Source: an uncultured Bacilli bacterium (lineage in GTDB: Bacteria > Bacillota_I > Bacilli_A > RF39 > UBA660). Taken from it: a stretch of DNA of 63,705 nucleotides. The notes under the pieces were generated by a model. That model ran no database searches, had not been told where the DNA came from, and worked only from the letters and a program-made list of their open reading frames with translations. How positions within the stretch are numbered: the stretch's first letter is position 1; every line of letters begins with the position of its first letter. Location of the stretch: the NCBI GenBank assembly GCA_944350445.1, contig CALVOW010000006.1:1-63705 (forward strand). The letters are read 5' to 3'. The translations under genes and the position numbers were made by a program. Shown piece after piece: positions 1-281 of the stretch.

Positions 1-96
1 TAGAAAATTAAAAATGCTATAACTTATTCCTAGTGTTACTACTAATATTAAAATTATTATTAAACTTATACTTATTAATTTTTTCCTATTTTTCAT
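1..96 (-). CDS. 5' end (runs off window) of a secreted protein paralogous to the DGR target
   Basis: Not in ORF track. ATG at 96 after GGGAG reads MKNRKKLISISLIIILILVVTLGISYSIFNFL, closely matching the target N-terminus MKDRKKVISISLIVSLILIVTLGVTYAAYNTL (44299..46869). Confidence 0.8.
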   Translation of the reverse strand, partial: MKNRKKLISISLIIILILVVTLGISYSIFNFL

Positions 97-112
97 AATT
101 TTCTCCCAAACA

Positions 113-281
113 ACAAAAAACACCTAAAACCCAGTACTTGCGTACTAGTTTTAAGTGTTTAAAATTCTTACTATTTCTTAGAAAATTTGAAAAAGTTAGG
201 TGGTTTAGACCCCCCCCATGGTTGACATAGAGTTAACTTTATTTGTTGAATTATTCATCATATTATCAACTACCTTTCTAA
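113..281 (-). promoter_or_regulatory. Conserved poly-G leader / candidate attenuator, copy 1 (intact)
   Basis: SD AGAAAGG; leader ORF 261..205 MMNNSTNKVNSMSTMGGV*; G8 tract (C210-217 on +); hairpin with GCAA loop plus U-run at 115-160. Homologous to 46954-47051 + 47488-47571. Confidence 0.65.
115..160 (-). terminator. Intrinsic terminator-like hairpin inside leader copy 1
   Basis: Minus strand AAACACTTAAAACTAGTAC-GCAA-GTACTGGGTTTTAGGTGTTTTTT, about 20 nt upstream of the ATG at 96. Confidence 0.65.

Follow-up and report, generated by a model that had tools for sequence, protein, structure and literature searches.

The stretch of DNA considered here, called the window in the following, comprises 63,705 nucleotides (nt; positions 1 to 63,705) of contig CALVOW010000006.1 in the assembly GCA_944350445.1 of an uncultured Bacilli bacterium, whose genome measures 1.34 Mb in 46 contigs at 26% GC and 94% completeness. 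At the very start of the window, on the minus strand, lies a leader cassette of about 190 nt, in which a Shine-Dalgarno (SD) sequence, a small open reading frame (sORF) ending in a homopolymeric G tract, and an intrinsic terminator follow one another ahead of the gene for a secreted-type protein. The module is directly preceded by an open reading frame (ORF) for a 183-aa protein, for which the best Pfam match was DUF6385, a weak hit (E 0.0033) below the cut-off. The features of this region and of a second copy within the window are collected in Table 1.

Table 1. Features of the two leader modules in the window and of the genes next to them (aa, amino acids).
Feature	Position	Strand	Description
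Whole leader module	86-281	-	SD, 18-codon sORF with G8 and intrinsic terminator, then gene for a secreted-type protein
Promoter-like site	857-885	-	TTGAAA-17-TATGAT (with TG), 5' of the 183-aa gene; consensus match only
183-aa ORF	278-829	-	N-terminal hydrophobic segment; directly 5' of the module; stop TAG 280-278
SD of the leader sORF	278-273	-	GAAAGG
Leader sORF	205-261	-	18 codons and stop, MMNNSTNKVNSMSTMGGV*; ATG 261-259, TAA 207-205
Imperfect palindrome	221-237	-	GTTAAC-N5-GTCAAC; ends 3 nt 5' of the G tract
G8 homopolymer	210-217	-	Within the sORF; last codons ATG GGG GGG GTC TAA
Frame with one additional G	86-209	-	41 codons, open through the terminator, GLNHLTFSNFLRNSKNFKHLKLVRKYWVLGVFCCLGENYEK*; stop TAG 88-86, overlaps the downstream start region
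Intrinsic terminator	118-160	-	Core stem 148-131 with GCAA loop; extended stem 160-118; T run 120-115
Downstream gene start	1-107	-	SD GGGAG 107-103, ATG 96-94, first 32 codons MKNRKKLISISLIIILILVV...; paralog of the ~855-aa family; contig ends inside
Second module copy	46951-47576	-	Own promoter, sORF, G10 (47499-47508) then AG, terminator ~47000-46955; split by an insertion
436-bp insertion	47052-47487	-	21-bp terminal inverted repeats, 10-bp target duplication GTCTAAACCG; just 3' of the copy-2 tract
856-aa paralog	44299-46869	-	3' of copy 2; no Pfam or NCBIfam family; 242 unnamed homologs

All parts that the original prediction had named, i.e. the SD sequence, the leader frame, the G8 tract and a terminator-like hairpin ahead of the gene, are found at positions 86-281, and the stop codons it had assigned to tracts of seven, eight and nine G residues proved exact. 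With G8 the sORF ends at TAA 207-205, with one G less its frame closes at 173-171, and with one G more it runs through the whole terminator to the TAG at 88-86, which lies 8 nt beyond the downstream ATG (96-94). The terminator stem is extended to 160-118 by A/U pairing. In an RNAalifold consensus of 11 copies of the terminator one base pair covaries (UA in 6, CG in 4, AU in 1), accompanied by several G-U changes, and the 211-nt stretch of the window module folds with a z-score of -4.65, none of 200 shuffles folding as well. Searched against Rfam with gathering-score and E-value thresholds, the region gave no match, the best candidate being Hatchet with 16.7 bits of the 51 required. The window copy does not contain the conserved P1 promoter found in most other copies and adjoins the 183-aa gene; to judge by the consensus match, the transcript that runs into the module probably originates at the site at 885-857.

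The 18-mer adjoining the tract occurs twice in the window as compared to 0.01 expected occurrences. The original prediction had noted these two copies. The module indeed recurs, and a genome-wide motif count gives 17 copies at unrelated loci, many of them at contig ends because the repeat breaks the assembly there. While the genes 5' of the 17 copies are unrelated housekeeping genes, all 12 downstream starts that can be read belong to one and the same paralog family. That long G runs are unexpected in DNA of this composition could likewise be substantiated: the genome holds 21 G/C runs of at least 7 nt, compared to about 1.5 expected under a model of independent, identically distributed bases, and 17 of the 18 runs of at least 8 nt lie inside modules. 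An alignment of the copies reveals a promoter of the form TTGAAA-N17-TAAGAT/TAAAAT, kept about 20 nt 5' of the SD sequence in most of them; the window copy and those on contigs C31 and C32 are without it because each directly follows another gene. The tract lies 3' of this promoter, within a separate sORF and 140-220 nt 5' of the ATG of the gene, which agrees with the earlier claim that it is part of neither the coding sequence nor the promoter.

A search by DNA similarity recovered the module from 13 of the 22 other genomes in the genus and from none of 18 searched outside the genus; of all 23 genomes in the genus, 13 contain the motif with its G tract. Within a sample drawn from the order, 3 of 121 genomes carry the motif, namely that of the window, one congener and one genome of another genus. 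A scan of bacteria and archaea (one genome per species) returned 100 stretches, nearly all of them in metagenome-assembled genomes (MAGs) titled "uncultured Bacilli bacterium" from the guts of rabbit, roe deer and other hosts, and only few in MAGs under other labels. Two of the motif matches fall into MAGs labelled Muribaculaceae: in L112 (CAYTGK) the cassette is clearly present and the contig has probably been binned wrongly, and the motif in L132 (CAZQAO) looks like a chance match. The public runs that hold the genome of the window, kept as Logan contigs, are chicken gut metagenomes; 17 of them hold at least half of the sampled words (20 holding rows, 8 studies).

For a comparison of the cassette across genomes we used 133 distinct copies, selected by the motif with its G tract. 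In this motif-selected set a run of G7-G10 lies in the last sORF codons of all 133 copies. In 111 copies an SD sequence with start codon can be identified; the best one stands 3 to 28 codons away and shares the frame of the sORF in 100 of them, and the reading ...KV(N/D)xxST.GGV* is kept, the peptide beyond KV(N/D)xxST.GGV not being conserved. Judged by these sequence features, the leader sORF is a genuine reading frame. A terminator, defined as a hairpin of -8 kcal/mol or better followed by a T run, is present in 106 of the 133 copies (median -18 kcal/mol). A terminator scan found one at 148-131 of the window and one in L003, and none in L010. With respect to where the sORF ends, the 106 copies divide into 78 short, 20 long and 8 intermediate ones. 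In short copies the stop codon lies within 12 nt after the run, and its distance to the hairpin base is no less than 28 nt in 78 of 78 (28-94 nt, median 44). In long copies the sORF ends at the hairpin base (6 copies), inside the hairpin (8) or after it (6). For the short copies, the frame that does reach the hairpin is that obtained by adding one G in 72 cases, that obtained by removing one G in 5, and neither in 1.

Between species, the sequence that separates run and hairpin can no longer be aligned; it was therefore grouped into 32 clusters to assess whether such a frame is open by chance. Relative to dinucleotide-preserving shuffles, from which 16.2 clusters with a frame open from run to hairpin are expected, 31 were observed (Poisson-binomial P ~5e-10, a value that overstates the significance because the clusters are kin). 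The single cluster without an open frame comes from a Muribaculaceae MAG, where the motif probably matches by chance. Other copies thus keep the open frame across to the hairpin, as had been predicted, and it is only the openness that is kept, since the long-frame peptides are not conserved in sequence.

Tract length differs between copies in steps of single bases. Measured from the palindrome to the tract end, the distance is 11 nt in 105 of the 133 copies, 12 nt in 25, 13 nt in 2 and 10 nt in 1, i.e. relative to the modal spacing 25 copies are longer by one base and one copy is shorter by one. Such an excess is to be expected if the additional G leads to a state that is used; a mutational bias such as that reported for Campylobacter G8 tracts could add to it. 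Of 13 same-genome groups of copies with identical flanks, four differ in G number alone, examples being TGC followed by G8 or G9 in the genome of the window and CAT followed by G8, G9 or G10 in genome G017, and both the short and the long state are present among paralogs whose flanks are identical.

Taken together, this design suggests that the cassette is, on balance, probably a portable phase-variation switch that operates by transcription attenuation. The transcript would start at the sigma-A-type promoter of the cassette or, for the copy at the window start, come from the upstream gene, and would carry a translated sORF with a G8 tract in its last codons. In the common state translation would stop 5-8 nt after the tract, at least 28 nt 5' of the strong intrinsic terminator, so that the hairpin can form, most transcripts end before the surface gene and its expression is off or low. 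Slipped-strand mispairing that adds one G would bring the sORF into the one frame that is kept open; ribosomes would then reach the hairpin base and enter or cross the hairpin, thereby hindering its folding, and transcription would continue into the gene, corresponding to the on state. In copies of the window type, where the sORF stop overlaps the gene start, translation might be coupled as well. If the 15-30 loci of a genome switch independently of each other, a varied surface repertoire would result. The comparison shows the anatomy of the cassette, its conservation, the frame that is kept open and the two states among paralogs; the rate at which the tract changes, the dependence of read-through on leader translation and the identity of the on state are inferred.

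Next to the tract stands a further element, the imperfect palindrome, whose half-sites GTTRAC and GTCAAC are almost invariant in 102 distinct sequences, 3 nt 5' of the G run. Part of this invariance exists by construction, as the search pattern fixed most palindrome positions; variants of the type GTTAAG...CTCAAC keep the outer pair by a compensating change. As RNA the palindrome is predicted to fold with -0.8 kcal/mol in the window type and with -7.0 kcal/mol in the G008 type, and it forces the codons AAC or GAC (Asn/Asp) in a genome of 26% GC. Since the palindrome abuts the run, the main rival to a heritable switch is programmed slippage at the RNA level, either by RNA polymerase or as a ribosomal -1 frameshift on G GGG GGG, which would yield a fixed fraction of the long frame and non-heritable read-through, with G9 copies representing fixed variants. 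Such slippage would account for the maintenance of the palindrome beside the tract across the genus and for the shared tract spacing, which is expected if the length itself matters. In line with this possibility, a nascent stem-loop directly 5' of a homopolymer stimulates transcriptional slippage in Roseiflexus IS630 elements, where, similar to the cassette, an inverted repeat just 5' of a homopolymer lies inside a frame and the shift changes the product (Penno et al. 2015, as described in the review PMC5009743). According to the same source the stem there is GC-rich, directly adjacent to the run and causes the loss of one RNA base, whereas the stem of the cassette is separated from the run by 3 nt, is weak in many lineages, including that of the window, and stands before a tract at which the useful shift is +1, the -1 frame closing after 7-12 codons. 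The 25 to 1 ratio of DNA-level +1 and -1 changes moreover points to heritable states under selection. We regard slippage at the RNA level as unlikely.

A different role of the same element would be that of an operator for a DNA-binding regulator. The family of copies would then be a regulon, and the G run and its frames would be by-products of the shared descent of a duplicated 5' region. This would explain why the sequence of the half-sites is kept beyond what pairing alone demands and why the Asn/Asp codon is always AAC or GAC in spite of the low GC content, with the reservation that the search pattern contributes to the invariance. Shared descent leaves unexplained both the frame that stays open across diverged spacers and the constant geometry of stop codon and hairpin; as a substitute for phase variation we consider an operator highly improbable, and the two are not mutually exclusive. 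A function of the palindrome as recombination site was set aside: copies lie on both strands genome-wide and recombination between them would rearrange the chromosome. Similarly, the module as a whole does not resemble a miniature inverted-repeat transposable element (MITE), as it has no terminal inverted repeats and always stands in one orientation before a gene. Within the attenuation switch itself the palindrome might serve as a dedicated slippage-control element, acting as a nascent-strand hairpin or a protein-binding site, which would make the cassette a portable, rate-tuned switch at 15-30 surface genes. This extension is speculative, and we consider it improbable on present evidence. 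If it were true, the cassette might slip in transcription too, and each locus would have a heritable as well as a non-heritable state.

The claim of the original prediction that the frame set by the poly-G tract governs attenuation is partly supported: the open frames and the presence of both states among the copies fit it, but some copies might be transcribed by a further route. This and the following points weigh against phase variation by attenuation. A promoter-like site lies between terminator and gene in 31 of 89 copies, 17 of these matching at least 10 of 12 positions, and therefore read-through is not the sole possible route of expression in every copy. The eight intermediate copies belong to neither of the two states. 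The tract spacing is highly uniform, which equally fits a tract that is fixed for another reason, and the invariant palindrome finds no explanation in the switch as such. At single loci no tract-length heterogeneity was seen in the contigs of public runs, which break at the repeat and mix paralogs, and no RNA runs are listed among the public runs that hold the genome of the window. In another metagenome four contigs match four of the loci; three of them have the same G8 and one has G7 with the element replaced. Finally, in Bacillus subtilis ribosomes lag behind RNA polymerase, which argues against ribosome-mediated antitermination in Bacilli. The streptococcal case discussed below nevertheless shows that such antitermination can work.

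With regard to the tract in public DNA, three runs show a one-base deletion at the tract of L010 in 34.5 of 100.2, 154.4 of 333.4 and 47 of 77.1 depth, all paralogs being pooled; the run contigs stop at the repeat start (place 1524) and drop variants, paralogs collapse in them, and no inference is drawn from these values. A fourth run, presumed to be RNA (X18), did not cover the leader. At two of the four orthologous loci mentioned above, the G7 locus and one G8 locus, the element is swapped for another member of the family, which suggests gene conversion among copies. The metagenome contigs L211 and L209 share flanks of 94-99% identity with G000:C25 and G000:C11 and carry a different leader and paralog member.

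The promoter-like sites after the terminator also bear on the possibility that promoter, sORF and terminator together form a small gene of their own, encoding a peptide or a structured RNA, in which the G run would be a fixed structural or binding element, pairing e.g. with a CCRCC motif or with a trans-acting RNA or protein. Consistent with such a unit, the cassette is equipped with a promoter and a terminator of its own, roughly one copy in three shows a promoter-like site between terminator and gene, and the consensus fold of the window lineage pairs the G run with a CCRCC located 3' of it. G-repeats in a leader are furthermore the targets of the small RNA RepG in H. pylori (PMC8295292). 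Conversely, no Rfam family is matched, CCRCC is absent from most other lineages, e.g. G008, the peptides are not conserved and yet the long frame is kept open, and decay of a fixed motif would not be expected to produce the 25 to 1 excess of +1. In addition, 41 of 89 copies have a spacer of less than 45 nt between hairpin and ATG, too short to accommodate another promoter, so that read-through is the sole route there. On these grounds an independent small gene appears distinctly unlikely. As regards the promoter-like sites themselves, perfect TTGAAA-17-TATAAT sites follow the terminator in G004 copies. Matches of this kind are common in such AT-rich DNA and the counts of the scan are near those of shuffles; if real, the sites would provide some genes with a second input. 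Sites between terminator and gene were noted in the G004 stretches L020, L035, L123 and L198 as well as at ~46900-46925 of the window, between the copy-2 terminator and its gene, and a conserved AAGGGAC is found near promoter-like sites that follow the terminator.

Attenuation governed by leader translation and heritable control of a leader terminator both have parallels in known systems. In pyrBI-type attenuation of E. coli, the ribosome that translates a leader ORF through the attenuator hairpin physically blocks termination; there the outcome is set by nucleotide-dependent coupling, whereas in the cassette it would be set by a heritable change of frame. In the cwpV-type switch of Clostridioides difficile, formation of a leader terminator depends on which way an invertible element is oriented. 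Both there and, as proposed, here a heritable change of the DNA in the 5' leader decides on termination before a surface-protein gene, but cwpV-type control uses site-specific inversion and needs no translation, while the cassette has no flanking inverted repeats or recombinase and would rely on a one-base slip. The classical contingency loci of Campylobacter, Neisseria and Haemophilus (see PMC11955535) share with the cassette a G run of 8-10 in AT-rich DNA, surface genes as targets and length differences of ±1. Their tracts lie inside the regulated coding sequence or the promoter spacer, in contrast to the separate sORF that would act via a terminator in the present case.

The closest parallel is provided by the pil1 and pil3 pilus operons of S. 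gallolyticus. According to Danne et al. 2014 (PMC3894217), a leader-peptide gene containing GCAGA repeats and a terminator stand ahead of both operons. At the usual number of repeats the peptide is short, ending 39 bp upstream of the hairpin, and expression is low; changes in repeat number that shift the frame lengthen the peptide so that it ends within or beyond the hairpin, and expression is high. The effect requires translation of the leader as well as the terminator, and isolates in which the leader stop lies at least 28 nt before the hairpin are low expressers. The order of promoter, translated leader ORF with a simple-sequence repeat, intrinsic terminator and surface-structure genes is the same as in the cassette. 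In both systems the default stop lies tens of nucleotides before the hairpin, at 39 bp in S. gallolyticus and at 28-94 nt (median 44) in the cassette, a shift of frame moves the end into the hairpin or beyond it, and the short state forms the majority and the long state the minority. While the original prediction had not recognised the cassette as a described element, the same logic has been demonstrated experimentally in this case, and given the shared geometry the mechanism proposed here has already been described. The two systems differ in the repeat, which is a G homopolymer here and consists of 13-22 GCAGA units there, and in the number of loci, 15-30 per genome as compared to two. They differ also in the cargo, which is varied here (a ~855-aa family without known domain; acyltransferase, Wzz and GtrA-type genes), and in the invariant palindrome that abuts the tract of the cassette, some copies of which in addition have an extra promoter-like site; the cassette is known from its sequence, the streptococcal switch from experiment. 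Full-text literature searching returned pil1/pil3 as the sole experimental case of phase variation by leader-peptide length before a terminator, and none with a homopolymer. What is new here is therefore the homopolymer tract, the large number of loci, the portable form of the cassette and the added palindrome.

The genes that follow the cassette in the genome of the window form a family; its complete members are 527-857 aa long, and every member opens with a basic segment followed by a hydrophobic one. The ~855-aa paralogs matched no Pfam family even at E <= 10 and no NCBIfam family; they have 242 unnamed metagenomic homologs. A protein atlas gave leads only, namely DUF6273 (16% of one cluster) and Peptidase_M73 (11% of another). 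The AlphaFold model (P0001, alignment A2; mean predicted local distance difference test score 73.1, predicted template modelling (TM) score 0.64) is of moderate confidence and shows an N-terminal helix followed by beta-rich domains. The best Foldseek matches were to parts of RbmA, FnBPA, SdrG, a transglutaminase and a GH2 beta-sandwich, with target TM scores of at most 0.32 and root-mean-square deviations above 13 A. In view of these weak fold matches the designation adhesin-like, used in the original prediction for the downstream gene, was not adopted, and we refer to the ~855-aa paralogs as predicted secreted or surface-type proteins. An assignment to the SipW-dependent (TasA/camelysin) type, which their N-terminus presumably resembles, was rejected, as no match to the cognate signal-peptide model, TIGR04088, was obtained in the genome at E <= 1. 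A gene for an archaeal-type (SipW-like) signal peptidase I is located at G000:C21:954-1439 (93.3 bits, over the cut-off).

The cargo found behind the cassette in congeneric genomes includes genes for an Acyl_transf_3 acyltransferase, a Wzz chain-length determinant, a GtrA-family protein and a hexapeptide transferase; it further comprises an FkbH-like protein and very large proteins bearing fn3 or DUF6273 domains. Because these gene types are so varied, the cassette can be regarded as portable. The acyltransferase, Wzz, GtrA and hexapeptide transferase types, as well as large fn3 or DUF6273 proteins, are typically phase-variable in other bacteria.

In the second copy of the window the tract is G10 followed by AG and not G9, as had been claimed. 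The long frame described for this copy, SLNRLSFSNFF..., does exist once the insertion is removed, and it ends in the 3' arm of the hairpin; it is not the present frame of the sORF. The insertion of 436 bp, which parts the sORF from its terminator, is single-copy in the genome and contains no ORF of at least 30 aa; by its terminal repeats and target duplication it is MITE-like. Next to this copy, at 47623-48630 on the minus strand, the window encodes the spore germination protease GPR (TIGR01441, 295 bits), a gene which, in a genome of 1.34 Mb and 26% GC, hints that this small-genome lineage forms spores. Near the start of the window, 5' of the 183-aa gene, positions 893-4347 of the minus strand encode a 574-aa ABC exporter of the type I secretion or bacteriocin-export kind and a 583-aa HerA/FtsK-like ATPase, the two genes overlapping by 22 nt. 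The sole G8 run of the genome that lies outside a module is intergenic (G000:C2:44640-44647), about 20 nt 5' of the SD sequence of a gene starting VEEKEIIKIVLDELTNRGF..., and is without the palindrome or sORF of the cassette; it may represent a second kind of tract-dependent control.

In conclusion, if the cassette acts as proposed, switching by leader length would not be a streptococcal oddity. Uncultured Bacilli from the guts of chickens, rabbits and deer, with genomes of about 1.3 Mb, would possess a homopolymer version of it that has spread to 15-30 loci, where the cassette precedes an uncharacterised family of large secreted-type proteins and polysaccharide-modifying genes. The combination of an sORF, a G run and one frame open to a terminator would furthermore provide a sequence rule that can be applied to metagenomes, and the compact cassette could be used to test the distance at which ribosomes follow RNA polymerase in Firmicutes. 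For the organisms themselves it would follow that the sequence alone predicts which surface genes are on in a given genome.

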